Positions 3,998-57,013 are shown, counted from the stretch's first letter. The stretch: DNA of 57,013 bases from a virus (IMGVR_UViG_3300043756_000110:1-57013), one strand, 5' to 3'. Notes: generated from the sequence alone by a model not told the origin. Numbers and translations are program-made.

Positions 3998-5332
3998 ATG
4001 GCAGATGGCGTTGGTCTTGGAGTTGGCGAAGGAATTGGTCAGGGTTTAAATCGCATTGGCGACCTGCTGATTGCCAGTGCCGATCGCCGGCGTCAAGACC
4101 GCGACTTGCAGGCGGATAAATACGAAAAGCAGGCACAGGACATTAGCGCCAATCTCGCGCAAGCGCTTCAAGGTCGGCCGCTTGGTCAGGCCTTGACCAC
4201 TCCCGGTCCCAATCAGGATCAGGTTCGCGATCTTTACAATCAGCTGAACCGTACAGTGCAGATGCATAACGGACTTTACGGAGCGCACGAAACTCCACAG
4301 CTGATTCAGCGCATTCAGCGATTCGTTGGCAGGCAACCCGGCCGGCCGATGATGGATGTGCGTGCCACGATGACGCCGGAATCAATGGTGGCGGCAGCAC
4401 ACCCGACGGAGAAATCGCAGACACTCAGCCAGCAGTTTGATGAGTTCGTCGGTGTTCTGACACGGCTTCACCCCGACTGGACGAAAGAACAGATCGCCAA
4501 GAGAGCTGAAGAGTTAGCGTTTCCAGCAAAGACAACTCGGTACCGAGAGGAAAAGTACATCGACAGCCAAGGTGTCCTCCATCCTGTGAATGTCGCCGAT
4601 CCGCAGGAGGTACAGGACGCCGAAGACCAAGGATGGAAACTGGTCGGCGGGGGAGCAGGGGCAAAGGGCCTTGCCTACACTCGTGACCGCGGCACCTTAG
4701 TTTCAATCACGGACAAAGCAACTGGAAAGTTGTATAACGACGTCAACATTAACGAACCAGATACCCCTTCATTTATTCGCGAGAGTTTCCTTGAGGATCG
4801 AAAACGTACGGCGCAAGTCACGGCGGATGCACTAACTGAAAGGAAGCGACGAGAAGCAGTCCAGGAAGATCGTCAGGTCCGAACTTTCTGGTTCAACCAG
4901 TACAACCGTGATCGTGAAAAAGCAGCAACCGCGATGGAACAAACCAATACGAAACTTAAAGAAGCCGCGGTCTTAAGGAATCTTGCAACTCAAGCACAGC
5001 AACTGAAGAATCCTACCTTCGATCGACAGTTACTGGAAGCGATTCAAAAAAGCCATACGCAACAAGCGATCGATGTGGAGCTGAACGCTGGTGGATGGGT
5101 TCAGAACACCGTAGACGCCATTCAGAGATTAATTTCAGGACAGGTCATGCCAGATAATGTTCGCGATGGTCTAGCAAAATGGCTCGATGCGAATTTTAAT
5201 GAATGGAATGACGAATACCAGCGGGAGGCTAAGGCAATTGCGGATATCCCGTTACCGCAAGGGGTCCAAGGTGGCACTCCTAATGATGATCTTCAAAACC
5301 GACTAAACGACGCGCTCACTCCCGGTAAATAA
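3998..5332 (+). CDS. Putative ejection/internal virion protein
   Basis: N-terminal GVGLGVGEGIGQG followed by a charged helical body; RBS AGGAG; synteny. Confidence 0.45.
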   Translation: MADGVGLGVGEGIGQGLNRIGDLLIASADRRRQDRDLQADKYEKQAQDISANLAQALQGRPLGQALTTPGPNQDQVRDLYNQLNRTVQMHNGLYGAHETPQLIQRIQRFVGRQPGRPMMDVRATMTPESMVAAAHPTEKSQTLSQQFDEFVGVLTRLHPDWTKEQIAKRAEELAFPAKTTRYREEKYIDSQGVLHPVNVADPQEVQDAEDQGWKLVGGGAGAKGLAYTRDRGTLVSITDKATGKLYNDVNINEPDTPSFIRESFLEDRKRTAQVTADALTERKRREAVQEDRQVRTFWFNQYNRDREKAATAMEQTNTKLKEAAVLRNLATQAQQLKNPTFDRQLLEAIQKSHTQQAIDVELNAGGWVQNTVDAIQRLISGQVMPDNVRDGLAKWLDANFNEWNDEYQREAKAIADIPLPQGVQGGTPNDDLQNRLNDALTPGK

Positions 5333-5333
5333 A

Positions 5334-7805
5334 ATGCCGCAAAAAGACGCTATCGATGAATTCATCGCATTGCCGAACGACGAGCAGATGCGGCGGCTCG
5401 GAGCGCTGACCCGCGATAAGCAGGATCTTTTACTTCAGAAAGTTAAAGAGCGTCGATCCAAACAGCCATCCGCTATAGGACAGACCACTGCACCCGTGGC
5501 AACTTCGACTACGAAAGTCCCTGTCGCAACACCAACCGCACAGCCAAAAGGGAGACCGTTCCCGACTGTGCAATATCCAAGTACGGCGGCGACAAAACAA
5601 AAGCAAGATCAACTGGCAGACCGCCGCGCAATTGCGCATGCGCAATACTTATCGAACCTCCCCAGCTTCAGCCGACCCGAAAATTACCCCGCATGGCAAG
5701 CCCCCCTCGATCTTGCGATCGGTGCTGAGCAGATGTTGGGTATCGATCCCATGCGTCCCATCGCGACAACGCCAGGAGCCATTAAAAACCTGTGGCAGAA
5801 CCTCATGCAGTTTGGAAATATTCAAACCGATCCAGGGGGAACCAAATCGATACCTGCGATGTGGGAGGCGATTAAGAGAACTGCCACAGCGGCGAATCGA
5901 GCACGTCAAGAACAGAATCTTCCAGAGATGTATCAATCCCTTGGGCAATTCGGTGTAGCGGCGCAACCTGTGGCGGGTGCTGTTGAAGCGGGTCTCGGTG
6001 TTGTTCGAGCAGGTGCTGGTTCTCTTGCCGATGTCGCGGGTTTGCGTGAGCGAGCACGTAATGTTCTGCGACAGTCGCTCAAATCAACACCTGAAGAGAT
6101 TGAAAAACCTAAGCTTGAAGAAGCCTCGGCAAAGATCGCGGAAACGCAGCAGAAGCAAGCGGAGGCAAATCTGGCTGCGGCGGAGAAGACACAAGCATCA
6201 AAGGAGAAAGTGGCTCAGGAGGTGGAAGAACGTCGCACTGCAGCTCATAACGCAGCTCGAGGAGAAGCTCTTGATCGTAGTGTTCAAGAAGGTAGCACGC
6301 GTCTGGGTGAACGTGTATCCGACTTGGATGGGAAACTTCGCCAAGAAGGAAACGAGAAATATACCGCCGTCCGTAATGCCGTAAAAAACGATCCGGGAGT
6401 ACCACTGGCCGGCTTGGCACAGGCCGCGAAGCATGCTGAAGACAACATCCTGAAGGGTTCGCCCGAAAATATTAAGCAGTTCCGTGATCTTGCGCGCAAA
6501 GCGCCAGAAGAAGCGGGAGTGCAAACGAGTATAGGTGAACTGCAACCTGGCGATCCGCTATACGAACGTCTCAAATCGGAGGGCGCGCTAGATCTCGGCG
6601 GCAACATTACGTTCGATCAACTTCAAGGATATTCGTCGGAGATCGGCGAAAGATTGGCGCGGGGCGGTTTACAGGGTGATGTCTATCAGGCGTTGAAATA
6701 CCTGAAAGACGAAATCGATAAGGCCAAGACAACGATTGCGGAGCGTAATAACGCCGGCGGTCTCCTTCGCAATGCGGACTCCTTCTGGCGGTCGTACATG
6801 GATCTCTTCTACGACTCCGATAGCGCACTCGCCAAAGTTCGAGAAGGTGTCGGTACTAAAAACCCCTCCGAAGCCTTTAATGAATTTATGCGTGGAAGAG
6901 GGGATGAAATTGCGATTGGACGCTTAAAGCGACTTCGCACTCGACATGCCGATGATGCCAGTGCAATTGCGGATCTGAGTCAGAATCTCAAATCAGCCAC
7001 GAGAGAAGCGGATACATTAAAAGGAACCAGGGTTCCAGGGCGTCCAGAACCACCGACCCGCGCCGTTCCTAAACAGATCCCCCAGGAGCAATTGCCGACC
7101 GTCGAGAGTTTCGCTAAGGTGCGACGGGAAAAACTTCTGAACACATTTCGTAACTGGCGCGCGACCTCCATCTTCGAACTCCATCGTTTGGGTTACGCGG
7201 TGAACGCGGCCACTATCGGTTTTGTGGCAGGGCATAGTTTCGCCACTGCTGGCCTCGGAGCCGTCATTGCGTTTGCAACTCCTAAGATTGTCGCCGCTAT
7301 CATGAGTAATCCCGAGATACTGGACTTTCTGACCGCTCCGACCGAAGACATCATGGACGCAGCGGAGAATCTGCCACCGGACCAAAAATTAAATTTTCAG
7401 AACAACGTTCGTGATGCTATTAACCAGAGTCAGGCTGCTGGCCGACCGGTGAACGTATCACCGAGAATGTCCCGTTTCCTGGGGCTCACTGCCGTTGGTG
7501 CAGTGACAGCACCCGTACAGAATCGGAAGGACGCGATGGAACGCCTCGGCCGTAATCCCACTAATCCGACTCAACCGTCAGCTTCTGCTCGGATCACACC
7601 ACCTGCTGCCAGACCCGCTACAGCTGCAGCTTCGATGACGCTGGACGACTTTAATGCTCGACTCGATCGGCTGCTGCCTCCAGGTGATGCACGGTTTACT
7701 GATGCGAACCGGAGATTCAGCGTCATGGCTGGGGACGCGCCGGCCAGCCAGTTGGGCGACATCTTAGCCAGAGCGCAGGCGGAGGCGGTCAGAATAGGCC
7801 GATGA
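5334..7805 (+). CDS. Putative large ejection/DNA-transfer protein
   Basis: 823 aa, coiled-coil rich, with a late hydrophobic segment (IGFVAGHSFATAGLGAVIAF); last gene of the late operon. Confidence 0.45.
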   Translation: MPQKDAIDEFIALPNDEQMRRLGALTRDKQDLLLQKVKERRSKQPSAIGQTTAPVATSTTKVPVATPTAQPKGRPFPTVQYPSTAATKQKQDQLADRRAIAHAQYLSNLPSFSRPENYPAWQAPLDLAIGAEQMLGIDPMRPIATTPGAIKNLWQNLMQFGNIQTDPGGTKSIPAMWEAIKRTATAANRARQEQNLPEMYQSLGQFGVAAQPVAGAVEAGLGVVRAGAGSLADVAGLRERARNVLRQSLKSTPEEIEKPKLEEASAKIAETQQKQAEANLAAAEKTQASKEKVAQEVEERRTAAHNAARGEALDRSVQEGSTRLGERVSDLDGKLRQEGNEKYTAVRNAVKNDPGVPLAGLAQAAKHAEDNILKGSPENIKQFRDLARKAPEEAGVQTSIGELQPGDPLYERLKSEGALDLGGNITFDQLQGYSSEIGERLARGGLQGDVYQALKYLKDEIDKAKTTIAERNNAGGLLRNADSFWRSYMDLFYDSDSALAKVREGVGTKNPSEAFNEFMRGRGDEIAIGRLKRLRTRHADDASAIADLSQNLKSATREADTLKGTRVPGRPEPPTRAVPKQIPQEQLPTVESFAKVRREKLLNTFRNWRATSIFELHRLGYAVNAATIGFVAGHSFATAGLGAVIAFATPKIVAAIMSNPEILDFLTAPTEDIMDAAENLPPDQKLNFQNNVRDAINQSQAAGRPVNVSPRMSRFLGLTAVGAVTAPVQNRKDAMERLGRNPTNPTQPSASARITPPAARPATAAASMTLDDFNARLDRLLPPGDARFTDANRRFSVMAGDAPASQLGDILARAQAEAVRIGR

Positions 7806-7817
7806 CTTTTAATAGCC

Positions 7818-7856
7818 GGATGATTATGAAAATAAGGATCAAGCTGATAATCATCC
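7818..7856. terminator. Inverted repeat at the end of the late operon, possibly a bidirectional terminator
   Basis: GGATGATTAT(7818-27) / ATAATCATCC(7847-56), located between convergent transcription units; no strong U-tract. Confidence 0.3.
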
Positions 7857-7930
7857 AAGAGGCTGGAAATGGAACGGGTTCATCATTCATCACGGTTCAT
7901 GATTGTTTGTAACACACTAATGATTCAAAC

Positions 7931-8030
7931 GGCCATAAGCCCCACGCCTTGCCCAGCCGGGCCCCACCGTACCCTGCCTAGCCTTGCCGCGCTAGGCCTT
8001 ACCTTGCCTAGACCAGCCAAGTCTCGCCGT
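7931..8030 (-). ncRNA. Orphan GGY-NN pentamer-repeat guide-like RNA unit H
   Basis: 18 dinucleotides in strict 5-nt register (plus: ac tt ca gg cc gt ct ta tt gc ag tt tt ta ca aa tc gt), ending in the hairpin GGG-GCU-UAU-GGC-C (one G.U pair). Confidence 0.75.
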
Positions 8031-8037
8031 ACAGTTG

Positions 8038-8067
8038 TTGTTAACACAGATTCATTTGTATTACAAT
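8038..8067. promoter_or_regulatory. Overlapping divergent sigma70-like promoters
   Basis: Minus strand: TTGTAA(8066-61)-17 bp-TGnTAACAA(8043-38), aimed at unit H. Plus strand: TACAAT(8062-67), 7 nt before ATG 8075 (possible leaderless mRNA). Confidence 0.4.
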
Positions 8068-8074
8068 TGGATTA

Positions 8075-8302
8075 ATGACATTTGATGAATTACAACTACT
8101 GACAGAGAAGAACACGAAGGCGATTGCTGAATTAATTGTAGTTTCACGAACTGTACTAGATCACGCCAAAATTGTGAGCGCAGATCTGGAGAAGTCCACA
8201 AAAGAGATGAACGATCGGATGAATGCGCTCATCCACATCGTCGATGACTTGGTCCGTGACCGCTGGCGCCGGAAGAATGAGAACGGCGAAAAGAACCAAT
8301 GA
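8075..8302 (+). CDS. Small coiled-coil protein
   Basis: Heptad pattern; ATGA overlap with the next gene. Confidence 0.55.
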   Translation: MTFDELQLLTEKNTKAIAELIVVSRTVLDHAKIVSADLEKSTKEMNDRMNALIHIVDDLVRDRWRRKNENGEKNQ

Positions 8303-8502
8303 ACCGGCAAGTGCGACTGAATCGGCGTGTGGAGAAGATTCGCCGGGAAGCGTGCGAACGGTTCACTAAAGATGCGGTTATCCAGTGCCGAGTTGAAGTG
8401 CGACAAATGGATCAACTCAAAGAATTAGCTCAAACCCAAGGACTCTCCGTCAGCGCACTGACACGCATGTGGCTTCTCGAACGCCTTCGCGAAGAAAAAT
8501 GA
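8299..8502 (+). CDS. Ribbon-helix-helix (CopG-like) DNA-binding protein
   Basis: IQCRVE..QMDQLKELAQTQGLSVSALTRMWL fits the RHH pattern. Confidence 0.6.
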   Translation: MNRQVRLNRRVEKIRREACERFTKDAVIQCRVEVRQMDQLKELAQTQGLSVSALTRMWLLERLREEK

Positions 8503-9419
8503 TCTCGTCCGCCGAACTCCTTTCCAATTTCGAACACTGCCAGCGCTGGGGCTATTACTCCCAACACTGGCGCAAGCACCGCATGTCGTCCTTAGAAATG
8601 TTCAACACTGCGGTGCGGCAGGCGCTCATTGAAGATCGACCCGATCCTGGGGAGAACGCCGGCGAGATCATGATGACCATGGCGCGCGATCGCGGCCTCG
8701 AGCTCACCGACAGCATCAACACCTATCGCTGCGCTATCAACCATGCTGCCGCGGCGGATCTCGTCGTCACCGCGATCCGGGAGAAAAATCAAGAGGTCTG
8801 GCGGTCGCTACCGAATAAGGTGAACGGTTGGTGGGCCTCCGGGATGATGGATCCCAGTGGAAACTTTTTGAGGCGCTTCATCGCCGTATCCTCGTGGAAT
8901 GAAGATCGTGAATTCTACGAGAAGCATTCCTGGTACGTGCTCGGGGATGTCGCGCATTACATGATGCCGATGCAGTTAGTCGTTGCGGTGATGGGATCCA
9001 TGCAGAGCGGTCGGCGCCACGGCTACTGGTCGAAGGGCTTGTTACATCCGCACTGGAATCAAGTGCGGTTTAAGCTTCGCCGGCGCAGCCGAGTTGAGGG
9101 ATTCGTGGATTCATGGCAAACCTGCTTCCGGGAAGATCACGATGAGATCAGCCGGGAGAAGTGGTTGCAGGGGATGATTGAGGATGAGGTGCTGCAGCAA
9201 TCTTTATTCGTGATTAAAATTCCTGTGCCGGAGGAGACCGCCCTCGACAAGATTAGGAGCCTCGCCACACGACAGCTTGAACGTCTGCGCGCACTGAGCG
9301 ATCTTCCGGAAAAACAATTGACGACCTGCCACAATCCCCTTGCGCCATGTCCATTCAGGGCTTGCTGCTGGTCGGAACCGGAGTCGAAGCCGGAGGATAG
9401 CGGCTACGACCCCGTATGA
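8499..9419 (+). CDS. Cas4/RecB-like PD-(D/E)XK-fold protein with an Fe-S-type Cys signature
   Basis: N-terminal SS..LL..FEHCQR and C-terminal TCHNPLAPCPFRACC. Start reassigned to ATG 8499 (ATGA overlap). Catalytic (D/E)xK is not obvious. Confidence 0.55.
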   Translation: MISSAELLSNFEHCQRWGYYSQHWRKHRMSSLEMFNTAVRQALIEDRPDPGENAGEIMMTMARDRGLELTDSINTYRCAINHAAAADLVVTAIREKNQEVWRSLPNKVNGWWASGMMDPSGNFLRRFIAVSSWNEDREFYEKHSWYVLGDVAHYMMPMQLVVAVMGSMQSGRRHGYWSKGLLHPHWNQVRFKLRRRSRVEGFVDSWQTCFREDHDEISREKWLQGMIEDEVLQQSLFVIKIPVPEETALDKIRSLATRQLERLRALSDLPEKQLTTCHNPLAPCPFRACCWSEPESKPEDSGYDPV

Positions 9420-9422
9420 AGA

Positions 9423-9824
9423 TTACGCTCTCTTCTTCATGAACCCTGGCATGATGCCGGCGTCCATGCGCTCTTGGGCGACACGCTTCGCCTGCTTCTT
9501 GCGGTTCGTCTTCCCGACCTGATCGTGTTGTCTGGCGATAATCTCAGCAACCTTGGGCGGTATGACCAGTCGGATCGTACCGCTGGAAGATGAATGCATC
9601 AGAAAGATCGTGTCACCGACCTCCCGTTGCCGGAACGTTTGCACTGTGAACATTTCCACGCCACCGATACCAAACTGTGGAATGTGCTGGTGCGGCGTCG
9701 GTCGGGTCTGAATGACATCGGGTAATCCATCCAGACTTCCCATCAGGCGGGAATAGTTGTCCACGGTTGGCACGTGATCACGCACGTGCGTAATTACATC
9801 ATTGTCTTCATCATGTGATCTCAT
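9423..9824 (-). CDS. Hypothetical protein
   Basis: RBS AAAGGAG upstream of ATG 9824 (MRSHDED...). Confidence 0.6.
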   Translation of the reverse strand: MRSHDEDNDVITHVRDHVPTVDNYSRLMGSLDGLPDVIQTRPTPHQHIPQFGIGGVEMFTVQTFRQREVGDTIFLMHSSSSGTIRLVIPPKVAEIIARQHDQVGKTNRKKQAKRVAQERMDAGIMPGFMKKRA

Positions 9825-9861
9825 TCTGTCTCCTTTAATGAAAGCTAAAGTCTCAACCTTC

Positions 9862-9888
9862 ACTATATAGTATACCACACAATGTCAA
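9862..9888 (-). promoter_or_regulatory. Sigma70-like promoter
   Basis: Minus strand TTGACAttgtgTGgTATACTatatagtg: perfect -35 box and extended -10-like boxes, but spacing is non-canonical. Confidence 0.35.
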
Positions 9889-9901
9889 CAGCCCGTTAGG
9901 T

Positions 9902-10312
9902 TTATCCAACCGGCTCATCGCTCAAGAATTCATCCGGATCCGCCGAGTTGCCCGACGGCTCTACTCGCACCGGCGGCGTCGATGTCGTAAGCCGTCCCGC
10001 TGACGGCATATATTTCTGCAGCCAATCCTCCTGGCTCGTCGGAGTGGGTATCGGAACCGGCGCGACCCGCGCCTCGTCACTGCTTGGCCCAACTTCTCGA
10101 TCCCTCGATGAAGCCGCTGGCGGTTCCGATAGCGCGGACACGAGATTCTCGAGATACGGAATCCGTACAGAGAGGTACTCCAGTTTCCGGAGCGTTTCCG
10201 TGCGTTGTGCCACTCTCCGCTCCAGCTCGGCCTCGGCTTTACTCAAAGCGGATTCGTAGATGGTGCGGCGTGGTTCGCGCCGGCGCCGCGGCCGCGTCTT
10301 CTTCCTTATCAT
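9902..10312 (-). CDS. Hypothetical protein (basic N-terminus, coiled coil)
   Basis: ATGA overlap with the upstream gene; part of the leftward operon. Confidence 0.5.
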   Translation of the reverse strand: MIRKKTRPRRRREPRRTIYESALSKAEAELERRVAQRTETLRKLEYLSVRIPYLENLVSALSEPPAASSRDREVGPSSDEARVAPVPIPTPTSQEDWLQKYMPSAGRLTTSTPPVRVEPSGNSADPDEFLSDEPVG

Positions 10313-10656
10313 CTGACATGCTCCTTTTTCTTCTGATCCTTCACACGCGCCGCCTGCGTTTTGAATTTAAATAATGCCAGCTGCATTGCGGTGTCCTCTT
10401 TGTGCTCCTCTGCATACTCGAGTTTCTGCTTCTCTTCTTCCGACAGATCGGTCCAGACATAAGGCCAGCGGTTTTCCGGATGCGCCACTTCCCATACTTC
10501 GACGAGATCGGTTTCCACCTGATGCTGACATTTGAAACAGACGCCGGCGTGACGATAATCGATCAACTGACAGAGCCGACATGTGAGAAGCTTTGGCGGA
10601 AACCATGCGCGCTTCTCGCGATCCAATTCCCTGGCGAAGGCTTCTCTCAGCGTCAT
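10309..10656 (-). CDS. Zinc-finger-like hypothetical protein
   Basis: CRLC...CFKC; starts just after the unit G hairpin. Confidence 0.55.
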   Translation of the reverse strand: MTLREAFARELDREKRAWFPPKLLTCRLCQLIDYRHAGVCFKCQHQVETDLVEVWEVAHPENRWPYVWTDLSEEEKQKLEYAEEHKEDTAMQLALFKFKTQAARVKDQKKKEHVR

Positions 10657-10668
10657 TCATTTCAATCT

Positions 10669-10753
10669 GTGCATAGCACCCATGCCTAGCCCTGCCTTAC
10701 CTTGCCTCGCCGAGCCCAGCCATACCGGGCCCTGCCCCGGCCTCACCTGGGCC
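10669..10753 (-). ncRNA. GGY-NN guide-like RNA unit G
   Basis: About 14 units (plus: at ta ct tt tt tc ga ca at gg ct ccg tc tgg; two 3-nt irregularities at the 5' end), then hairpin GGG-UGC-UAU-GCA-C. Confidence 0.75.
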
Positions 10754-11000
10754 TGTCTGACTTATTCCGTGTTGTCTCCGAACAAACTGGACTGCAATCG
10801 TGTTGATGTCTTGGATTCAAGCCTCGTGGCTGCCGTGCTTCGATTGGTAGAAGACAAATCCCGCAGCGGCCGGTTCTCATGTACTCTCCAGGCTGGTATT
10901 GCGGTTCGGATATCGGCGTCGGCGTGGGGAACGAATCCCAGTCGATCTGCAAGTCCGGAAGCAACGGGTCTTGCGGTTTGTTGGGTTTTTGCTTTGCCAT
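10743..11000 (-). CDS. Small Cys-containing hypothetical protein
   Basis: CGIC...CSPVC. An alternative frame (10762-11010) also exists. Confidence 0.4.
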   Translation of the reverse strand: MAKQKPNKPQDPLLPDLQIDWDSFPTPTPISEPQYQPGEYMRTGRCGICLLPIEARQPRGLNPRHQHDCSPVCSETTRNKSDRPR

Positions 11001-11010
11001 TCCACACCAT

Positions 11011-11322
11011 TCAAGGACACCTCATGAAAACGCGCATGCGTGAACCGTTCTGGCCCAGGCGTGAGGCGTGCGTGCATTCAATCCGATGAATTCTCGCTAA
11101 TGCGTGGGCTATGCGGCGTAGTCGCTTCTGTATCGCCGGATCTTCAGCATCAAATTCCAACTCCTTACAAACATCCTCAACGGTGAACCACTTTCCTTTC
11201 GCATCGAAAAGGACGAAGAATATATCCAAGCTGTCGTTCAGCGCCTGGAACCGTCGGTAGCGGTAATTCTGGCGCGCTCCCCTTATATGAACGCGACCAC
11301 GGGTTGTCATTTCCTTCGTCAT
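11011..11322 (-). CDS. Putative winged-helix DNA-binding protein
   Basis: WFTVEDVCKEL...KRLRRIAHALARIHRIEC resembles a wHTH. Confidence 0.45.
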   Translation of the reverse strand: MTKEMTTRGRVHIRGARQNYRYRRFQALNDSLDIFFVLFDAKGKWFTVEDVCKELEFDAEDPAIQKRLRRIAHALARIHRIECTHASRLGQNGSRMRVFMRCP

Positions 11323-11342
11323 GACTCACTTTTTAAATTGCT

Positions 11343-11427
11343 GTGCATCGCACCCATGCCAAGCCAAGCCGTACCGTGCCATCCCCGGCCTCACCAGGCC
11401 TTGCCGAACCGCACCGTGCCCTGCCGC
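11343..11427 (-). ncRNA. GGY-NN guide-like RNA unit F
   Basis: 15 dinucleotides (plus: at aa aa gt gt at cg tc ag tt ga gc gt ct gc), then hairpin GGG-UGC-GAU-GCA-C. Confidence 0.8.
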
Positions 11428-11438
11428 CTTGATTTTCC

Positions 11439-11538
11439 GGTCATAGACCCCATGCCAAGCCGTGCCGCACCGCACCGTGCCTTGCCGCACCAGGCCTAGC
11501 CCAGCCAGACCGCGCCAAGCCTCACCGCGCTGGGCCGA
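11439..11538 (-). ncRNA. GGY-NN guide-like RNA unit E
   Basis: 18 dinucleotides (plus: at aa gt gc gc gt tt gc ag ta ca ag gc aa tc gc gg ga), then hairpin GGG-GUC-UAU-GAC-C. Confidence 0.8.
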
Positions 11539-11546
11539 ATTTCTTT

Positions 11547-11621
11547 GTGCATTGCACCCACGCCCCGCCGTGCCCAACCAAGCCAAACCAAACCACGCCT
11601 CACCAAGCCTCGCCCCGCCTC
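11547..11621 (-). ncRNA. GGY-NN guide-like RNA unit D
   Basis: 13 dinucleotides (plus: ac cc gt ca aa aa aa ac tc aa tc cc tc), then hairpin GGG-UGC-AAU-GCA-C. Confidence 0.8.
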
Positions 11622-11623
11622 AC

Positions 11624-12136
11624 TTATTTCTTGTCCTTCGCCATGACCTTCGGCGTCATTTCGGGTGGTCCTGGAGCTAATGACCGGAATTGACGCGACT
11701 CGATCATTGCTGAATAGACGTGTTTTGCGGCCAAAATACGATGATCTTTGATCTTGCGTTCTTGTTCGGTCAGATCGGAGTCGGCGATATTTGCGACGGC
11801 GCGATGCGAATGGCGAACCTTCCGACCTGCATGCTGATCGAGATCTCCGGAATACTCCAATTGCTCAGATGCCGACAACACGCGAATTCCAACACCAATG
11901 TCTCCCCTAAGATCGCCCCGTATTTCGATTCCGGTTTCGCGGGCGACTTTTTTACGCCACCGCACAACCACGGTTTTATAACGACTCGTGTCGCGCTTTA
12001 ATCCGGTGACACGCTCGAGCTCTTCATGTTTGATTGTCGAACCGCGCAGACTTTGAATGTCCGTGAAATGTTCAGTCAATTTCCGGATTTCAAAATCTGT
12101 TGGCAAACCTTTCGTAAAAATATTCGCTTCGGTCAT
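11624..12136 (-). CDS. Hypothetical protein embedded in the repeat locus (candidate accessory protein)
   Basis: Likely true start is MTEANIF at 12136. The longer N-terminus in the ORF track is translated repeat. The ATG lies inside the unit C hairpin. Confidence 0.7.
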   Translation of the reverse strand: MTEANIFTKGLPTDFEIRKLTEHFTDIQSLRGSTIKHEELERVTGLKRDTSRYKTVVVRWRKKVARETGIEIRGDLRGDIGVGIRVLSASEQLEYSGDLDQHAGRKVRHSHRAVANIADSDLTEQERKIKDHRILAAKHVYSAMIESRQFRSLAPGPPEMTPKVMAKDKK

Positions 12137-12275
12137 AGACCCCCTGCCTTGCCTCACCTTGCCCTGCCTTGCCTGACCGCGCCGCGCCGTGCCAGACCCA
12201 ACCACGCCCTGCCGTGCCGCGCCCAACCGCGCCATGGCCGGCCTTGCCTCACCACGCCGAGCCCCGCCCCGCCAT
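12131..12275 (-). ncRNA. GGY-NN guide-like RNA unit C
   Basis: 27 dinucleotides in register, then hairpin GGG-GUC-UAU-GAC-C. Confidence 0.8.
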
Positions 12276-12284
12276 TTCGTTTCT

Positions 12285-12419
12285 GGTCATCGACCCCATG
12301 CCCTGCCCCGCCTTACCGCGCCGTGCCGCGCCGAACCACGCCAGACTCTGCCATGCCCCGCCTCGCCCTGCCGCGCCCTGCCATGCCAAACCGAGCGGAG
12401 CCATGCTCTGCCGCGCCCG
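12285..12419 (-). ncRNA. GGY-NN guide-like RNA unit B
   Basis: 25 dinucleotides in register, then hairpin GGG-GUC-GAU-GAC-C. Confidence 0.8.
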
Positions 12420-12438
12420 AAATCCATAATTTCGATGT

Positions 12439-12508
12439 GTGCATTGCACCCTCGCCACGCCTTGCCGAACCGAACCGCGCCGGACCCTGCCGTGCCGAGG
12501 CCGGCCAC
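12439..12508 (-). ncRNA. GGY-NN guide-like RNA unit A
   Basis: 12 dinucleotides (plus: tc ac tt ga ga gc gg ct gt ga cg ac), then hairpin GGG-UGC-AAU-GCA-C. Begins 4 nt after the stop of the RAMP-like gene. Confidence 0.8.
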
Positions 12509-12512
12509 GAAC

Positions 12513-13184
12513 TTAAAGCTCAGTGAGCGCCGCCAGCTTAAACATCCCATATGGTCCGGGCTTTTGCGAACCGGGACGCCAATCGCAAAGACCTCTGTAA
12601 TTTCCAGCGTGTTCCAGGATGTTTCTAATGACCGATTCCGTAATGCCATCATCCCAAACTGTAATCGTAAACTCTAGACTCCATGAATCAAATCGCGGCC
12701 GTACTCGGATATGTTTCGTTTTTCCATTGATTTTGGCGCGCTTGGTGAATAGACGGAATCCTAATTTCTTTGTGGCTTCCAAATGATCCGTAAATTTGTT
12801 CTTTCCCATTAGCGTCTCAATCGGAGCCCATGGAATACTCTTTCCGTCCACAATTAGTGGAATAAACATATCGTCCACTTTCATTCCACTCTGCGTTTGT
12901 GCTTTAAATGTTTTTGCGCCTCGAGTGCTTCCCGTCGGCACGAGCATGCCGCCCTCCATCATGCAGGTCGATAAGTTATCGCTCGCTATACAGATCTGTT
13001 TACCATCGTGATAGACAGATCCGATCCATCTATACGCTGGACTCCGATCATCGCCAGCTTTAGAGTTGGCTTTGTTCTTGGGATCCTTTTTCCACTCCTC
13101 CATTTGATCCGCCCACTCAATGTTGTCCCAATGCATCAGAAGCGGTGTCAGTCCTTCCAATATCACGGCGTAAGTTCGAATCAT
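12513..13184 (-). CDS. Stand-alone Cas7/RAMP-like RNA-binding protein (Vipr-like effector)
   Basis: N-terminal strand with LEGLTPLLMH, HIRVRPRFDSWSLEFTI, and C-terminal glycine-rich loop AGNYRGLCDWRP..GPYGMF, matching the RAMP signature layout. No other cas effector genes. Confidence 0.75.
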   Translation of the reverse strand: MIRTYAVILEGLTPLLMHWDNIEWADQMEEWKKDPKNKANSKAGDDRSPAYRWIGSVYHDGKQICIASDNLSTCMMEGGMLVPTGSTRGAKTFKAQTQSGMKVDDMFIPLIVDGKSIPWAPIETLMGKNKFTDHLEATKKLGFRLFTKRAKINGKTKHIRVRPRFDSWSLEFTITVWDDGITESVIRNILEHAGNYRGLCDWRPGSQKPGPYGMFKLAALTEL

Positions 13185-13897
13185 GTTGAATGCTGGTCTC
13201 CTTTCAATTGAATCAACGATGCCTTTAACAGCTCCGTGAGCCGGCGCTCCTCGAAGTTGTCCGAACGTCTGCGGACGCTGTCGCCCCGGAAATAGCCGCG
13301 CTTCACGGCAAGATCCGCCAGAACCTCCAGACGATCGGAGAACGCGCTCACTTCCACTGAGAGCCTCTTGATGAATGTTTCATCGCGCTCAATGGCGTAC
13401 AGGGCATATGGCAAGTCCGGGTGATAGCTCAGAAGCCATGTGCGTTCGCGTTCTCCGATCCAGAGCTGACCTTGCGTCTGAATCCAGTACTCCTTCTTGG
13501 CCGCTTCAGGAGCCATGAGATTCATCATGTGCCGCGGGATCTGTGGACACTTCACTTCCAGAAAGCCGTCATCGACGGAGCGGTCTGGAGACGTTCCCCA
13601 ACGTTCGTCGTCGTCGGTGATGAAGCCCACCTCCTCGGTCTCCCGATCGGTCACCAGTGTGAAGTACTGAACGGCCTTATGTTCAAGCTCCGATCCCCGC
13701 TCCATCGCGAAGGATATGTATTCGTCGAGCGGATGGCCCAGGATGCGTTCAGCGAGTAGATCGAACAGAAAAGGATCGGCTTGGCTCGAGGGCTTACCGG
13801 TTAGCGTAATGACGCGATGGAATGCCGAACTGCAGGGGATGCCAGCACGCTTCTGGGACCATTCGAAAGAGCCCTGTTTACACCGGTGGATTTTCAT
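13181..13897 (-). CDS. YqaJ / lambda-exonuclease family recombination nuclease
   Basis: QGSFEWSQKRAG, MERGSELE, GTSPD, LEVKCP, YWIQTQGQLW. Confidence 0.9.
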   Translation of the reverse strand: MKIHRCKQGSFEWSQKRAGIPCSSAFHRVITLTGKPSSQADPFLFDLLAERILGHPLDEYISFAMERGSELEHKAVQYFTLVTDRETEEVGFITDDDERWGTSPDRSVDDGFLEVKCPQIPRHMMNLMAPEAAKKEYWIQTQGQLWIGERERTWLLSYHPDLPYALYAIERDETFIKRLSVEVSAFSDRLEVLADLAVKRGYFRGDSVRRRSDNFEERRLTELLKASLIQLKGDQHST

Positions 13898-14597
13898 TCG
13901 CCTTTCTCCGTTTTTCCAATAGATCTATGGCGCGTCTTAGGTCGGCTTTTTTCAGATCCGCAACTTTCTCGATGCGAAAATATTCCAAGAACAGTTTCTT
14001 ATTCGCCCCTACGTCGGCGATGACCGTCTCGAGATCCTTGACCTGTTCGGCATCGATGGTCTCAACGTTCTCCGGCGATTCACCACGTTCGCGCTCCACA
14101 ATGTTGAAATGCAGCTTGTAGAGCTGGCGTCTGGCATAACTGATCGTCGAACCCTCCGACTGAACACCGGAACGAAAGTCGGATTTATCTAGGGGGAGAT
14201 TGACGCATTTTGTTTCCTCGTGACCTTGCAAATGCTTCAGGGTTCCACCGAATTCACGCATGCCATCCTTGATGCCCAGTTCCGTCATATCAAATGCGAA
14301 CCCGTGTTCATCCATTAAGGGCCGAAGCACGATATCCAGCTGCTCTAGAGTTGCGTAGCGGCTACGCACTTCGTTCTTCACGACGATGGAGCCGTCTTTG
14401 GTTACGGCAATCTTCGCTTGGGCATCGTGTAACGCCTTGAAATACGCTCGGCGCGCCTCGCGGTCTTCCTCTGCACGTTTCATGGCCAGCAGCTCTTTCA
14501 TGACCTCGACTTGATCCCGCGCATTCGGAGAACCCACGATCTGCTGGACGATTTCCATAATTGTCGGTTCATGCTTGATGAGATCGTTCTTACTCAT
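13878..14597 (-). CDS. ERF-family ssDNA-annealing protein
   Basis: RYATLEQL...PLMDEHGF and QSEGSTISYARR, the ERF GS.ITYARRY-like motif. Confidence 0.85.
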   Translation of the reverse strand: MSKNDLIKHEPTIMEIVQQIVGSPNARDQVEVMKELLAMKRAEEDREARRAYFKALHDAQAKIAVTKDGSIVVKNEVRSRYATLEQLDIVLRPLMDEHGFAFDMTELGIKDGMREFGGTLKHLQGHEETKCVNLPLDKSDFRSGVQSEGSTISYARRQLYKLHFNIVERERGESPENVETIDAEQVKDLETVIADVGANKKLFLEYFRIEKVADLKKADLRRAIDLLEKRRKANENPPV

Positions 14598-22850: not shown

Positions 22851-23522
22851 ATGAAACTGCTTCGTTTGAGCATGCTCCTAGTGAGCACGCTTGTTCTGTT
22901 TAGCTGGCCGATTTACGCCGACACCATCTCGATTGGTCTCCAAGAAGGCGGCGCTTCGCCAACGACGGTCGCGACGGGGGTCGGTGACGCCAGTGTGACT
23001 CAGGCTTTCGGAACTTTCTCCAGTGTCAGTGTGACGGGCCACGGCCAGTCGACCCTCACCCCGCCCGATGTGCTCTTTTCCAACGCGATCAACACCGCAA
23101 CAGCGATGGGGGGCACGTTGGATATTTTCATCACGGACCAAGGGTTGATCGCGCCCAATGGCACCATTCCGTTTGGTAGCTCCTTCACGGTCAATACGCT
23201 CCCGAGCGGATGGACCGTTGAGGAACTCACCTTCGTCGATGCCAACAACGGCTTATACGGCGGTGCTCCGCTATCCGCGTTCACCTTTTCGAGCATCGGC
23301 ACCAATGCCCAAGCGACAGCGGCCGCGACGGGGATCACGCCGTATTCGGTAACTGAAGAATTTATCGTGCATGCGACGGGCGCCGGCGACAGCAACGACA
23401 CGATTGATTTGACCGCAACGCCCGTTGTGGGTGCGCCCGAGCCCTCCGTGGTATTCTTGCTGGGCATCGGTCTGATGGGCGTAGGGCTACTCAAGCGATG
23501 CAATGTTGTGCGTTGGTTCTAG
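22851..23522 (+). CDS. Secreted PEP-CTERM (exosortase substrate) protein
   Basis: Signal peptide ending IYA-D; Thr/Gly/Ser-rich body; APEPSVVFLLGIGLMGVGLLKR tail. Confidence 0.88.
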   Translation: MKLLRLSMLLVSTLVLFSWPIYADTISIGLQEGGASPTTVATGVGDASVTQAFGTFSSVSVTGHGQSTLTPPDVLFSNAINTATAMGGTLDIFITDQGLIAPNGTIPFGSSFTVNTLPSGWTVEELTFVDANNGLYGGAPLSAFTFSSIGTNAQATAAATGITPYSVTEEFIVHATGAGDSNDTIDLTATPVVGAPEPSVVFLLGIGLMGVGLLKRCNVVRWF

Positions 23523-24695: not shown

Positions 24696-25367
24696 TTAGT
24701 GTTGAGGAAAAACGATAGTGATATCTAGCTGCACCAAGCGTTCACTGTCGAAGCACAGCCGACAATCCACGCACTGAGGTTTTTTAGGCGAGCATTCAAA
24801 CGGACATCCGACAAGCTTCTGTCCATCCACCACTAGGGCGCGGCCTCCATTCGATTTGAACGTTTCGTAAAGCTCGGTTCCTTTGAGCGCAACAAAAGCA
24901 GTTGCATAACCGCGCGCCTTAGCCGCGGCAATTTCGGAAAAGTCATCACAGGATGCAATGACGTTTGCGCCCATCCACGATTCCTTTTCGACATCGGCCG
25001 AAGCATGCGTATAGGTGTAGGCTTTCTTCCCGTGTTTGGACTCATGACGGACCATCGCACTACCGACGACAGCAGCATCCTGGTTTGTCGAACAATCGCC
25101 GACGACATGCACTCGCAAATCCAGCTTTCCGCTTAATCGATCGATAGCTGCAGCCTCCTGAATTGCCGTTTCGCTAGCGTCGGCATTCGATCGATTCACG
25201 CGATTGGTCTGAAACTTCACTAAACCTTTCTGGGCATAACATCCGTTGTCATATAACTGGCAGGACTTCGGGCAGCTGACTTGACTGGCATACGTGGCAC
25301 TGACCAGACCGGTCTTTCGGTTCTGGCTGTTTTCCACAGCAAACGCTGATACACTCTTCTCTGACAT
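24696..25367 (-). CDS. Cys-rich Gp88-like (Fe-S / radical-SAM-like) phage protein
   Basis: NRKTG, SCPKSC.....GCYA, LRVHVVGD, AYTYTH, CVDCRLC. Confidence 0.6.
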   Translation of the reverse strand: MSEKSVSAFAVENSQNRKTGLVSATYASQVSCPKSCQLYDNGCYAQKGLVKFQTNRVNRSNADASETAIQEAAAIDRLSGKLDLRVHVVGDCSTNQDAAVVGSAMVRHESKHGKKAYTYTHASADVEKESWMGANVIASCDDFSEIAAAKARGYATAFVALKGTELYETFKSNGGRALVVDGQKLVGCPFECSPKKPQCVDCRLCFDSERLVQLDITIVFPQH

Positions 25368-54055: not shown

Positions 54056-55441
54056 ATGCCGTACTCGTTCATCAAATTGGCCGAGGCCCGCATGGCGTTG
54101 GCGGAGCGTCTCTATGAGGGACGAAAGTCGATGCCCGCGCCGATGCAGTTCCAGAATCCGCTGGAGCTCGATGTCTACATCCGGGAAGCGCTGCAGACCT
54201 TCAACGCCGTTGCCAATTTCTATCGTGAAGAATTCGTCTTTCAAACCGAACCGGATCGAGCGTGGTACGACATCACAACCGAATTTGGAACGCTGCGGCC
54301 ACTGACGACTGGCGACTTTGAGATTCTGCAACAGATCGAATATCACCTTCTCGAACCGTTGTCGGTGGCATACCCGCTCGAATGGGAAGGTTCGCTGCAA
54401 TTCAATTTGGAAAACATTCTGAATGCGATCCAAACGGGCCGCGATAAGACGCTGTCGGAGACCGGCTGTACGGTTAATCAGAGCCTCGTGCCGGCACCAC
54501 CGCAGCGTATCTTTCTCGACGACTCGGTCATGGATATCCGGCGCTTATCCTGGCTTCCGAATAAATTTCAAAAAACTTATACACCGAATGTTGTCTTGCC
54601 GTCGGACTTGTGGGCCACGCAAAGCTTTCAAGCCGGATTTCCGCAGCGCGAGTTCGGAACGCCGCTGATTTATCGCCGCACGTCTGAACCGCCGGTTTCG
54701 ATTGATGTGGACATCACGCCCGCGGTGAATGGTGAATACGATTTGCTCACGACAAACAACGCCGGCGCGTTAGGCCTCGAGCAGACCACGATTCTTCCGA
54801 TTCCGAACGACTGGACATGGGTCGCGAAATACGCAGCGTTGTCGCAGTTGTTCGGCCGGGAGTCGCTCGCGAAAGATCAATTGCGAGAGGACTACTGCGA
54901 CAAGCGGTGGAAGCAAGGCACGGCGATGATGCAGACGGCGCCTGCGGTGCTCGCCGGCCGGATCAACAACGTGCCGGTGATTGTGGACTCGATGTCGAAT
55001 GGCGACTTCTATTTTGCGAATTGGCAGGGAAAGAAACACGGACATCCGCGCTACATCTTCTATTCCGGATTGAATATGCTGGCGCTAGCGCCGATCCCCG
55101 ACAGGGTCTATTCCGTAACCGTTCCCGTCGTTAGGAACATGCCGTTGCCTTTTGATGACAATGACTACCTGCAGATCGGGCGCGACGATTACTTTCCGGT
55201 TCTCGATCTCGCGCAACATCTAGGCATGATCAAAGTCGGAGGCGCGGAACTGACGATCACCTATCCGCTCATGGCGAACTTCCTGAGACATTGTGCGCTG
55301 TACAACTCGAAGCTGAACGCGATGTCGCTCTGGCGAGAGTGGTTGGACAACCGTCCACAAGAAGAAATGCTTAAAGTGAATCCGGTGTTCTCGCCCTCGG
55401 CGGATCCGGTAAAGGCGCAGGGAGGTTCTCAAGGTGGCTGA
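54056..55441 (+). CDS. Putative tail adaptor/tubular protein
   Basis: Start MPYSF; ELDVYIREAL..LALAPIPDRVYSVTV; position before the nozzle-like gene. Confidence 0.5.
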   Translation: MPYSFIKLAEARMALAERLYEGRKSMPAPMQFQNPLELDVYIREALQTFNAVANFYREEFVFQTEPDRAWYDITTEFGTLRPLTTGDFEILQQIEYHLLEPLSVAYPLEWEGSLQFNLENILNAIQTGRDKTLSETGCTVNQSLVPAPPQRIFLDDSVMDIRRLSWLPNKFQKTYTPNVVLPSDLWATQSFQAGFPQREFGTPLIYRRTSEPPVSIDVDITPAVNGEYDLLTTNNAGALGLEQTTILPIPNDWTWVAKYAALSQLFGRESLAKDQLREDYCDKRWKQGTAMMQTAPAVLAGRINNVPVIVDSMSNGDFYFANWQGKKHGHPRYIFYSGLNMLALAPIPDRVYSVTVPVVRNMPLPFDDNDYLQIGRDDYFPVLDLAQHLGMIKVGGAELTITYPLMANFLRHCALYNSKLNAMSLWREWLDNRPQEEMLKVNPVFSPSADPVKAQGGSQGG

Positions 55442-57013
55442 TCGGCAACGCCAAACCTTCAAAGCGAGTTTTCGCGGGATGAACACCCACGAACCACCGG
55501 ATGCGGAACCCGCAGGAAAGTGGCCACTCGCGGTTAACATCCGTGCGGATGGCGACAACAAAATCCGAACCCGCCCCGGTTATGACAAAGGTTGGGACAC
55601 CGGAACCGGCGGGCCAATTACCGATATCGGTAGTTACGCTGCACTCAATACGGATAGCCAGCCGCGGATTCTCATCCATGATGAAGCCGGTCATGTGTAC
55701 TTGGATCCGCCGGTCGGAACTCCTGGCGCTTTCGAGAATAAGGGAACAGTCGGTAGCGGGGGCGTGGGGGCGAGCATCATTCCGTTCCGACCATCGGCGT
55801 CGCCTCAGAGTTGGGCTTACATTGCCAACCCGACGGGATATGAAAAGTTCTCTGCGCCGGATTCCAACAATGATGTCGTGGCTCAGAAGGTGGGGATTGC
55901 CGAACCCCAGCCGCAACCGGAAATGGTTCCGGACGGATTCTACTTCCATGAATTCGGGGGTGGGGCGGGCAATTACATTCCAAGCGGGCATGCGACCAAT
56001 CTTCACGATGTGATCCGGTTGCAGGATACGGTAGGCGTTGTCATTGCCGACCCCGTTCAGCCGCCAGATATCAATCAGCGCTACTACATTCAGGTCGGTG
56101 GTATCAGTACCTACAACAACCCTGCCGATGCCGCTTCGGGCCTCATCACGCTTCCGAATGGAACCACTCAATCCGCACAGTATCAGTTGCCCATTGCTTA
56201 CCAGATTGGAATGTTGCTGCTCTTCGGCGGCACGGTGACTCCGGGTGCTCTTGGCTTTGTCATCTCGAACCCGGTTGCGCGCACGGTGGTGGAAGATGTG
56301 ATGTATCCGCTCCAGGATGAGGGCGGCATTGTTATTCAAGAGATTTACTACTTTGAAGGCCAGATGACGGGCACTCGGCACCGCTGTGTGATTGTGCCGA
56401 ACCAGATTGGCCTCTTGAAGCATTCGATTGTGGCCGGGGAAGGTCAGCCTGCCGGGGCCATTCAGCCGCCCTTTATCAATCCGGTTGCGGGCCTGCGCCG
56501 GGGTTCGATGATTCAATTGAATGGGGGCGAAGTGATCCTGGTGGAAGCGATGATCCTAGGACCCACCGGACAAGTGGCCATCTACACCGCGACGACGGGA
56601 TTCCATGCCGTGGGAGAAACGATTACAGGCGTGACATCGCTGGCGGTAGCGAACATTGACCCATCGATTTCAGGCATGACCGTCCGCTCGCCTCAGATCA
56701 ACTTTCAGGTGACTTCTGGATTGTCGGCGGTCACCTTCGGGGGTTCCGGACTTGGCGGCTTGCCTCCGCCCATCACGCCCAATCCATTTACCTTGCCGCT
56801 TGGGGATATGGGCATCCCGCAAGAAAACGATTTGGTGCACATCTCGCTTTCGGTGGTGCCGGACCCCGGGTCGTCCACACCGCAAGAGCTGATCCAGATG
56901 AAGGTTTCGTTCGACATCAATGACGGGTCGTTCACCAAAGACACTTACTATTACCCGGTTTCCACATCCATTCTCGGAGCCGCTGCCGATACGGGAAAGC
57001 CTCCCGCCTCCGA
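55434..57013 (+). CDS. N-terminal part of the large tail (nozzle-like) protein, continuing at 2-2605
   Basis: RBS GGAGG, GTG 55434, MADRQRQTFKASFRGMNT...; open to the window end and in frame with ORF 2-2605. Missing from the ORF track. Confidence 0.8.
   Translation, partial: MADRQRQTFKASFRGMNTHEPPDAEPAGKWPLAVNIRADGDNKIRTRPGYDKGWDTGTGGPITDIGSYAALNTDSQPRILIHDEAGHVYLDPPVGTPGAFENKGTVGSGGVGASIIPFRPSASPQSWAYIANPTGYEKFSAPDSNNDVVAQKVGIAEPQPQPEMVPDGFYFHEFGGGAGNYIPSGHATNLHDVIRLQDTVGVVIADPVQPPDINQRYYIQVGGISTYNNPADAASGLITLPNGTTQSAQYQLPIAYQIGMLLLFGGTVTPGALGFVISNPVARTVVEDVMYPLQDEGGIVIQEIYYFEGQMTGTRHRCVIVPNQIGLLKHSIVAGEGQPAGAIQPPFINPVAGLRRGSMIQLNGGEVILVEAMILGPTGQVAIYTATTGFHAVGETITGVTSLAVANIDPSISGMTVRSPQINFQVTSGLSAVTFGGSGLGGLPPPITPNPFTLPLGDMGIPQENDLVHISLSVVPDPGSSTPQELIQMKVSFDINDGSFTKDTYYYPVSTSILGAAADTGKPPAS
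56855..57013 (+). repeat. Terminal direct repeat, right copy
   Basis: Matches 1-159. Confidence 0.95.

Follow-up and report, generated by a model that had tools for sequence, protein, structure and literature searches.

Systems termed Viral Interference Programmable Repeat (VIPR), described in 2026 in bioRxiv preprints from one laboratory (10.64898/2026.04.26.720920, 10.64898/2026.04.26.720927, 10.64898/2026.10.15.759431), comprise a phage-encoded Vipr protein of the RAMP family, usually one vipr-accessory (vap) gene, and vrRNAs of 9-16 GGY/NN repeats (10.64898/2026.04.26.720920). In the experimentally studied systems, the GGY/NN repeat RNAs are guide RNAs in which the NN dinucleotides read double-stranded DNA and each unit passes over one base of the target; transcription is silenced upon binding, and the natural targets are satellites and rival prophages (10.64898/2026.04.26.720920). 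The repeat tract is followed by an invariable structured 3′ tail, which is likened to the repeat handle of a CRISPR RNA (crRNA) and forms a pseudoknot in the SUSP1 clade (10.64898/2026.04.26.720920). A single Vipr protomer binds each repeat, with G1 held by H17 and D177, G2 by R138 and W178, and Y3 in a pocket that includes R179 of SUSP1 Vipr; in cryo-electron microscopy, the 3′ pseudoknot caps the RNA and its filament, and the nearby subunits are the earliest to be resolved during DNA engagement (10.64898/2026.04.26.720927). Solo vrRNAs carry the same tail and are regarded as capable of Vipr loading (10.64898/2026.10.15.759431). The preprint experiments considered here were performed with SUSP1, with P. 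fulva, and with a small number of expressed loci of types III and V, and vap is predicted to be DNA binding in types II, VI, and VII; the available portion of the preprint text contains no passage on vrRNA maturation (10.64898/2026.04.26.720920). Here, we analyzed the complete sequence record of one viral contig of 57,013 nucleotides (nt) (IMGVR_UViG_3300043756_000110; the window), which carries eight repeat blocks that each close in a small hairpin, and compared it with these systems.

Eight GGY/NN arrays adjoin a gene for a Vipr homologue

The eight blocks (A to H; Table 1) lie on the minus strand at 12506-7931, have a GG every 5 nt, and hold 11-26 units each. Runs of at least five GGNNN units were not found on the plus strand of the window, and those on the minus strand all map inside the eight blocks. 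In total, 123 units open with GG; their third base is a pyrimidine in 122 (92 C and 30 T) and G in the remaining one, and all 16 dinucleotides occur at positions 4 and 5. With a constant GGY, a hypervariable NN, and a location beside vipr and on its strand, the arrays match the published GGY/NN signature. The pattern (GGYNN)x5-GGGKNNNATG has eight matches in the window, all on the minus strand, and none in 100 dinucleotide shuffles. Repeat finders returned only 5-nt periodic families and none of the repeat-spacer structure of a CRISPR array. Using Pfam, with which we scanned the 29 open reading frames (ORFs) of window 1-25400 (the remaining ORFs were scanned with PHROGs only), we detected no Cas1 or Cas2 domain in these 29 ORFs. 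Across the whole window, Rfam gave 0 matches at the gathering score, with 3 weak ones, far below gathering, in 7500-13000, and a tRNA scan of the window gave none.

The gene that precedes the arrays encodes a 223-aa protein. A nine-protein profile of this protein and its relatives (alignment A1) matched PDB entry 36pp_D, 'SUSP1 Vipr protein', with E=2.2e-16, and the window protein alone matched the same entry with E=2.1e-7; Pfam and NCBIfam gave no credible match. The AlphaFold2 (AF2) model of the protein (predicted local distance difference test [pLDDT] 82.6) had 36 PDB matches with E<=0.001 in Foldseek, headed by Csm3, type VII Cas7, and Cmr chains with a best probability of 1.00. The 36pp_D match together with the Cas7/Csm3-like fold agrees with the VIPR definition of a RAMP homologue of ~20 kDa with a single RRM. 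Window residues H18, R162, D201, W202, and R203 align with the GGY-contacting residues H17, R138, D177, W178, and R179 of SUSP1 Vipr, and H18, R162, D201, and R203 are invariant in the nine-sequence alignment A1. The definition also calls for carriage by a virus or provirus, and Pfam and PHROG scans identified genes for a large terminase, portal, major head protein, Erf, YqaJ exonuclease, and integrase, supporting that the window is a phage.

Because a Vipr homologue with the RAMP fold and the GGY-contacting residues adjoins GGY/NN arrays, we assign the locus to the VIPR systems. The region is very probably the guide-RNA part of a phage-encoded system of this type, in which each hairpin would cap the 3′ end of a guide. 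A GG every 5 nt also fits two other periods, i.e., the triplet plus 2-nt spacer of leaders recognized by TRAP and the G2N3 motifs of quadruplexes. That the repeats are the cis-regulatory leader of a TRAP-like ring protein or form two-tier G-quadruplexes in RNA or DNA is nevertheless highly improbable, as the adjoining protein is a RAMP-fold Vipr homologue and not TRAP-like, and as the near-invariant pyrimidine at position 3 is required by the Vipr pocket but not by a quadruplex. TRAP-like leaders, G-quadruplexes, ribosome standby sites, Rho-related elements, and pseudo-ToxI-type repeats had all been candidates and were dropped after the Vipr match.

Each array closes in a covarying hairpin

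On the minus strand, each of the eight blocks closes with GGG and then a 4-bp stem with an NAU triloop. Blocks A, D, F, and G share the stem GUGC/GCAC, blocks B, C, and E share GGUC/GACC, and H has GGCU/GGCC. The initial annotation of this DNA had listed these hairpins and had stated that the stem sequence changes while the pairing is kept; we recovered the same sequences, confirmed its coordinates, and found that all 32 stem cells of the eight-sequence alignment are standard pairs. Two of the four stem pairs change on both sides (GC/UA and GC/UA/CG), and the covariation score was reached by 0 of 500 shuffles. In control alignments with the partners slid by 1-3 columns, only 16-41% of the cells pair. 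The annotation's statement that one pair in H works only for the minus-strand RNA holds as well, since what is U.G on the minus strand would, in the plus-strand RNA, become a mismatched C-A. The A/U-rich linkers that it described after the hairpins extend for about 10-20 nt to the next array; GAAAT is present exactly in four of the eight (A, B, D, and G), and near variants are present in three more (GAAT in C and H and GAAAAT in E). These linkers could be nuclease sites. By eye, no conserved loop partner that would make the tail a pseudoknot was seen in these short linkers.

The hairpins lie between genes of one operon and on the sense strand, as would be expected if they were intercistronic mRNA stabilizers or terminators (REP-like [repetitive extragenic palindrome] or intrinsic) with the G-rich repeats as a spacer or anti-Rho tract. 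However, an intrinsic terminator has a GC-rich stem of at least 5 bp and a U tract, while the stems here measure 4 bp and the sequence after them is A-rich without a U tract. In addition, the number of sites from a promoter/terminator scan did not exceed that in shuffles, and none of them coincided with a hairpin; on the minus strand, the scan placed no terminator at these eight positions. This explanation would also leave unexplained the strict GGY/NN period, the hypervariable NN, and the near-obligate linkage to vipr, and we consider it extremely unlikely.

The position of the hairpin is conserved in related viral loci

We scanned IMG/VR with a pattern of array plus tail and obtained 35 stretches representing 32 distinct contexts. 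Seventeen of these contexts have the same kind of tail (GGGGUCUAUGACC, GGGGCUUAUGGCC, GGGGCCUAUGGCC, GGGGUCAAUGACC), 8 are other variants, and 7 are perfect (GGTCG)n microsatellites that were set aside. Flanked by the arrays in these loci is a protein with 45-58% identity to the 223-aa product of the window. A corresponding scan of contigs from species-representative genomes gave 55 matches, of which only L052, a Steroidobacteraceae metagenome-assembled genome (MAG), and L089, a Phycisphaerales MAG, have multiple hairpin-tailed arrays with a Vipr homologue, their tails including GCGC-AAU-GCGC and UUCG tetraloops; the remaining matches resemble GC-rich coding sequence or simple microsatellites. 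A blastn search of cultured phages with arrays D-F gave no match.

Scanning for relatives of the Vipr protein, we confirmed 106 viral stretches and kept the best 80 of them as loci. In 78 of these 80 loci, arrays of at least seven units lie on the vipr strand, with 298 arrays on this strand and 4, all in one locus, on the opposite strand. These data bear on whether the arrays are a functionless, slippage-prone DNA microsatellite. The perfect (GGTCG)n runs in 7 of the 32 contexts show that true microsatellites share the search pattern. The window arrays differ from them in that their units are not identical copies, with all 16 NN types beside a constant GGY, and Tandem Repeats Finder detects only three short fragments, of arrays B and C. 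Together with the strand-locked linkage to vipr, this leaves the microsatellite explanation with a very small probability, as the initial annotation had argued.

A covariance model built from the eight window tails and run on 486 kb of loci gave 375 matches with E<=0.01 in 87 loci. In an alignment of the best 150 matches, of which 134 are distinct, pairing holds for 99.4% of 505 cells, each of the four pairs varies on both sides, the inner two pairs occur as GC, CG, UA, and AU, and 0 of 500 shuffles reach the covariation score. In a model-free test on sequences that follow (GGYNN)>=5+GGG, a 4-bp hairpin begins at the third G or one base later in 106 of 117 distinct tails, compared with 12% in controls with the 3′ part shuffled and 27.5% in controls with the 3′ parts swapped. 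A hairpin census with looser criteria was not informative (70% at array ends versus 45% at random positions). These results answer the check on homologous loci that accompanied the initial annotation, in that the hairpin is kept at the same place with compensatory stem changes.

The hairpin tails of the relatives comprise 23 stem types with loops that include GUAU, UAU, AAU, UAA, UUCG, UUUA, and GUAA. The claim that the NAU loop is kept thus stands for all eight window units but does not extend to the family. Because the loops of the relatives vary at a conserved stem position, comparison of the tails indicates that the NAU loop is a subclade trait and that the stem at this position is the conserved feature. 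The UUCG and GUAA loops and a U.G pair that can form on only the G-rich strand point to RNA. The anatomy of the arrays, the homology and fold of Vipr, its GGY-contact residues, the strand-locked linkage, and the covarying hairpin are shown by these analyses. With vipr next to the arrays, structured 3′ tails in the studied systems, and the covarying hairpin in relatives, the proposal of the initial annotation that the hairpin is the 3′ handle of individual guides is supported.

Some of the IMG/VR loci differ in the organization of their arrays. A guide is present upstream of vipr in 19 of the 39 relatives with full flanks and in none of the positions upstream of vipr in the window. In L001, L011, L020, and L032, GGYNN blocks of ~8-12 units recur ~65 nt apart with GGGTTTCAYGG-like words and without the hairpin, and the run stops just before a small gene; this style may be one of the staggered or alternative vrRNA architectures mentioned in the preprint. 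In the vipr relatives L152, L153, and L159-L161, a GGAAC word and a register shift between arrays take the place of the hairpin tail. The (GGTCG)n microsatellites (L003, L004, L006, L013, L024, L026, L027, L029-L031, and L035), after which come GGGGTTCAATG and a palindrome rich in GC, have (GGGACA)n close by and look unrelated to VIPR.

Comparison with described systems

SUSP1, an Escherichia phage assigned to type II in the preprint, resembles the window in that a phage vipr gene is followed by a small accessory gene (a candidate one in the window), the GGY/NN pentamer guides are on the vipr strand, and the residues that hold GGY are conserved; the two Vipr proteins are ~24% identical over 96% of their length. 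The placement of the guides differs, with three located between vipr and the candidate vap gene in the window and five further down among other genes. In SUSP2, the sister of SUSP1, the stem that comes first after the repeats begins within the terminal GGG, as in the window.

The best cultured match is Pseudomonas phage vB_Pae_LESphi2 (OQ594955.1), the Vipr homologue of which is 27% identical to the window protein over 98% of the query. LESphi2 has three arrays, at least the second of which ends with GGG and the GC-rich hairpin GCUG-UUUA-CAGC that starts inside the terminal GGG, and this type of tail is also found in the window's own clade (L094, L095, and L102). In SUSP2 and LESphi2, the first stem runs on into a longer structure (in LESphi2, a second, longer hairpin), whereas the window tails do not. 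The LESphi2 arrays lie upstream of vipr, near cI/cro, while the window has none upstream. We note that LESphi2 (L183, around 4891-6400) is a prophage-derived phage of the cystic fibrosis isolate P. aeruginosa LESB58, that its Vipr homologue is annotated as 'hypothetical protein', and that its arrays lie between a 'sigma factor' gene and vipr. This comparison indicates that what is kept across the clades is a short hairpin with its start at the terminal GGG rather than the pseudoknot of SUSP1.

In class 1 CRISPR systems (type I-E/I-F), a Cas7 backbone runs along the crRNA, which carries a repeat-derived 3′ hairpin handle. The window locus is similar to these systems in that a RAMP-fold protein, as judged by the Csm3/Cas7 fold match, would run along the guide and a small hairpin would mark the guide's 3′ end. 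It differs in having no repeat-spacer array and no cas1 or cas2 among the ORFs scanned (29 with Pfam and the others with PHROGs), in the noncontiguous guide information (2 of every 5 nt), and in stems that vary from guide to guide within a locus, unlike a CRISPR repeat, which is constant throughout its array.

Proposed mode of action and evidence against it

By analogy with SUSP1 and P. fulva as described in the VIPR preprints, ribonucleoprotein assembly, a 1-nt-skip code, silencing, and tail capping can be proposed for this locus. Judging from the gene layout, a leftward early operon would be transcribed in the order Erf, exonuclease, vipr, and arrays plus small genes. Each array would yield a vrRNA on which one Vipr protomer binds each GGY/NN unit, with two neighboring protomers gripping G1, G2, and Y3 and leaving N4 and N5 exposed. 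The GC-rich hairpin, starting from the third G of the terminal GGG, would mark the end of one guide versus the beginning of the next. The exposed NN would pair with a strand of the target DNA, every third target base being skipped, and the bound filament would block transcription of a competing mobile element. The known VIPR mechanism is unchanged by this locus, and a system of this kind is already in print; what is added are clade-level data on the tail and a possible coupling of tail and start codon (see below). The locus and about 100 related viral loci form a clade that is divergent from cultured phages (best 27% identity), its guide-plus-handle logic can be recovered from sequence alone, and its 134 distinct natural tails (23 stem types in the separate census) could guide the design of minimal engineered vrRNAs.

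Several observations weigh against the assignment of the arrays and their tails to a VIPR system. First, the closest cultured-phage Vipr genes are only ~23-27% identical to the window Vipr, and among 119 matching cultured-phage records, none reaches 60% identity, the best being 27%. Second, the window tail is a single 4-bp triloop hairpin plus linker, while the SUSP1 tail is a hairpin plus pseudoknot of ~40 nt; the pseudoknot characterizes the SUSP1 clade and is not demanded of the VIPR family as a whole. Third, arrays B and C have 24 and 26 units, respectively, versus the 9-16 reported for the studied clades; these two arrays may hold more than one guide or unused units. Fourth, the hairpin was not favored over shuffles in free-energy folding of the eight tails (z-scores of -0.65 to +0.49); the minimum-energy fold is exactly the tail hairpin in unit C only, and that of units E, F, and G instead has the AUG paired with the last GGCAU unit. 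The support for the hairpin is, therefore, comparative and not thermodynamic. Fifth, the alignment of the best 150 covariance matches was fitted to the model's own structure, which is why the model-free test was run.

Sixth, we found no target for the guides. Under the 1-nt-skip rule, there was none at >=80% NN match in the window or 173 loci (0.92 Mb), and the scores were equal to those of the 0-nt and 2-nt skip controls. In an all-against-all comparison of 111 guides, 12 reached at least 0.8 with the 1-nt skip versus 13 and 12 for the controls. The exact 10-unit patterns of D, F, and C had 0 matches in IMG/VR, the 8-unit pattern of G had 9, approximately the number estimated by chance (best in L179, 19/22), and the 10-unit pattern of E had a single metagenome match that did not extend (23/30) and lies in an unrelated membrane-protein gene; as these large collections were scanned by exact pattern only, the target negative is weak. 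A function in this phage would accordingly be one assigned by homology. Finally, the single sequencing run listed for the sequence is of soil-metagenome DNA, the probable source, and no RNA run is listed.

With regard to array length, relatives reach 40 units per array. Uninterrupted arrays of 25-40 units are found in L121 (3662-3866) and also in L100, L021, and L156.

AUG codons in the tails and a candidate vap gene

The first gene after array C encodes a protein of 170 aa. Genes of the same family, with products of ~170 aa, come after vipr in at least L008, L010, and L016, and further members in L089 and L007 are connected by blastp, supporting that it is a candidate vap gene. The relatives are 19-25% identical to the window protein (alignment A4), which has no sequence match in PDB. 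The fold matches of its AF2 model (pLDDT 79) were all weak (best E=0.02), and many were to winged-helix DNA-binding proteins.

An AUG is present at the loop-stem junction of all eight window hairpins. Based on the alignment with its relatives, the AUG of hairpin C (12134-12136) is in frame with and likely the start codon of the candidate vap gene, and a tail AUG is likewise the likely vap start in L010/L155. The AUGs of F (11343-11322) and G (10669-10654) open frames of 9 and 5 codons, respectively, the TGA of which overlaps the ATG of the next gene (ATGA).

One explanation of these AUGs is that GGG...AUG is a ribosome-binding site with a start codon, that the arrays are leaders or standby sites of small genes, and that the hairpin is incidental. 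The AUG in all eight hairpins, its position as the best start for the gene after C, the ATGA overlaps after F and G, and an AUG in 57 of 106 hairpin tails of relatives would fit a start site. On the other hand, A, B, D, E, and H have no in-frame gene after them, most relatives have a separate GGAG-type site and an ATG 15-35 nt further, many tails have UUCG, GUAA, UAA, or UUUA loops and no AUG, and the pairing is kept via compensatory changes that a start site does not need. We consider this explanation very unlikely.

A second possibility combines the start codons with the function of the hairpin as a guide tail. In this scenario, the tail would have been reduced to a 4-bp hairpin that is joined to the final GGG, its AUG would double as a start codon (for vap after C and for the short frames after F and G), loading of Vipr on the guide and tail would gate translation of the accessory gene, and the arrays of 24-26 units would be long or compound guides. 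This proposal, which concerns an uncultured, soil-associated clade, is speculative, and we hold it to be rather unlikely as a whole. If true, it would constitute an autoregulatory link from guide biogenesis to effector expression; the consulted sections of the VIPR preprints describe no link between guide biogenesis and effector translation.

Genomic context of the locus

Blocks A-G are located inside a leftward operon, directly after the Erf, exonuclease, and 223-aa genes. A, B, and C lie between vipr and the 170-aa gene, D, E, and F lie after the latter, G follows two more small genes, and H lies 2.6 kb further, past three plus-strand genes. The four small genes that are interleaved with F and G had no Pfam or PHROG match, and a comparison with the ORFs that follow arrays in the window and 21 loci (22 sources) revealed no relatives of them.

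Table 1. Repeat arrays and neighboring genes in the window
Feature	Coordinates	Strand	Description
Erf gene	13878-14597	minus	Leftward operon
YqaJ exonuclease gene	13181-13897	minus	Leftward operon
vipr gene	12513..13184	minus	223 aa, RAMP fold, expected to coat GGY/NN repeats; phrog_4652, 36pp_D match, AF2 model
vrRNA A	12439..12506	minus	11 units (1 degenerate); hairpin 12439-12449 GUGC-AAU-GCAC
vrRNA B	12285..12417	minus	24 units (3 degenerate); hairpin 12285-12295 GGUC-GAU-GACC
vrRNA C	12131..12273	minus	26 units (1 degenerate); hairpin 12131-12141 GGUC-UAU-GACC
Candidate vap gene	11624..12136	minus	170 aa; phrog_5926; family recurs after vipr in relatives
vrRNA D	11547..11619	minus	12 units; hairpin 11547-11557 GUGC-AAU-GCAC
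vrRNA E	11439..11536	minus	17 units (1 degenerate); hairpin 11439-11449 GGUC-UAU-GACC
vrRNA F	11343..11425	minus	14 units; hairpin 11343-11353 GUGC-GAU-GCAC
Four small genes (span 9902..11322)	11011-11322, 10743-11000, 10309-10656, 9902-10312	minus	Function unassigned; ORFs interleaved with vrRNAs F and G
vrRNA G	10669..10736	minus	11 units; hairpin 10669-10679 GUGC-UAU-GCAC
vrRNA H	7931..8028	minus	17 units (4 degenerate); hairpin 7931-7941 GGCU-UAU-GGCC, one U.G pair

The plus-strand cluster that separates guide H from A-G (8075-9419) consists of three genes for proteins of 75, 67, and 316 aa. The 67-aa protein has a weak match to NikA-like ribbon-helix-helix proteins (E=6.6e-4), and the 316-aa protein is without a match.

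Elsewhere in the window, the Pfam and PHROG scans identified further replication and recombination genes, i.e., those for a primase-helicase and a RuvC-like resolvase. Based on the large terminase, the nearest named phage is Tunturiibacter phage Tunturi_1 (28% identity). Tunturi_1 has no such array; it contains one 5-unit GG run on the minus strand, without GGY or tail. Of the ORFs at 22851-23522 (plus strand) and 24696-25367 (minus strand), one has a weak PEP-CTERM match (20.3 bits versus the Pfam cut-off of 20.7 bits) and the other matches DUF7227. These two ORFs, the soil source, and the distant terminase match to an Acidobacteriota phage are the only hints as to the host. The ends of the window have no terminal direct repeat, and the open frame at the right end (55434-57013) can be read on, without a change of frame, through the left-end ORF (1-2605), giving 1394 codons before a stop. 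The sequence record is probably a circular or circularly permuted genome that was cut inside a gene.

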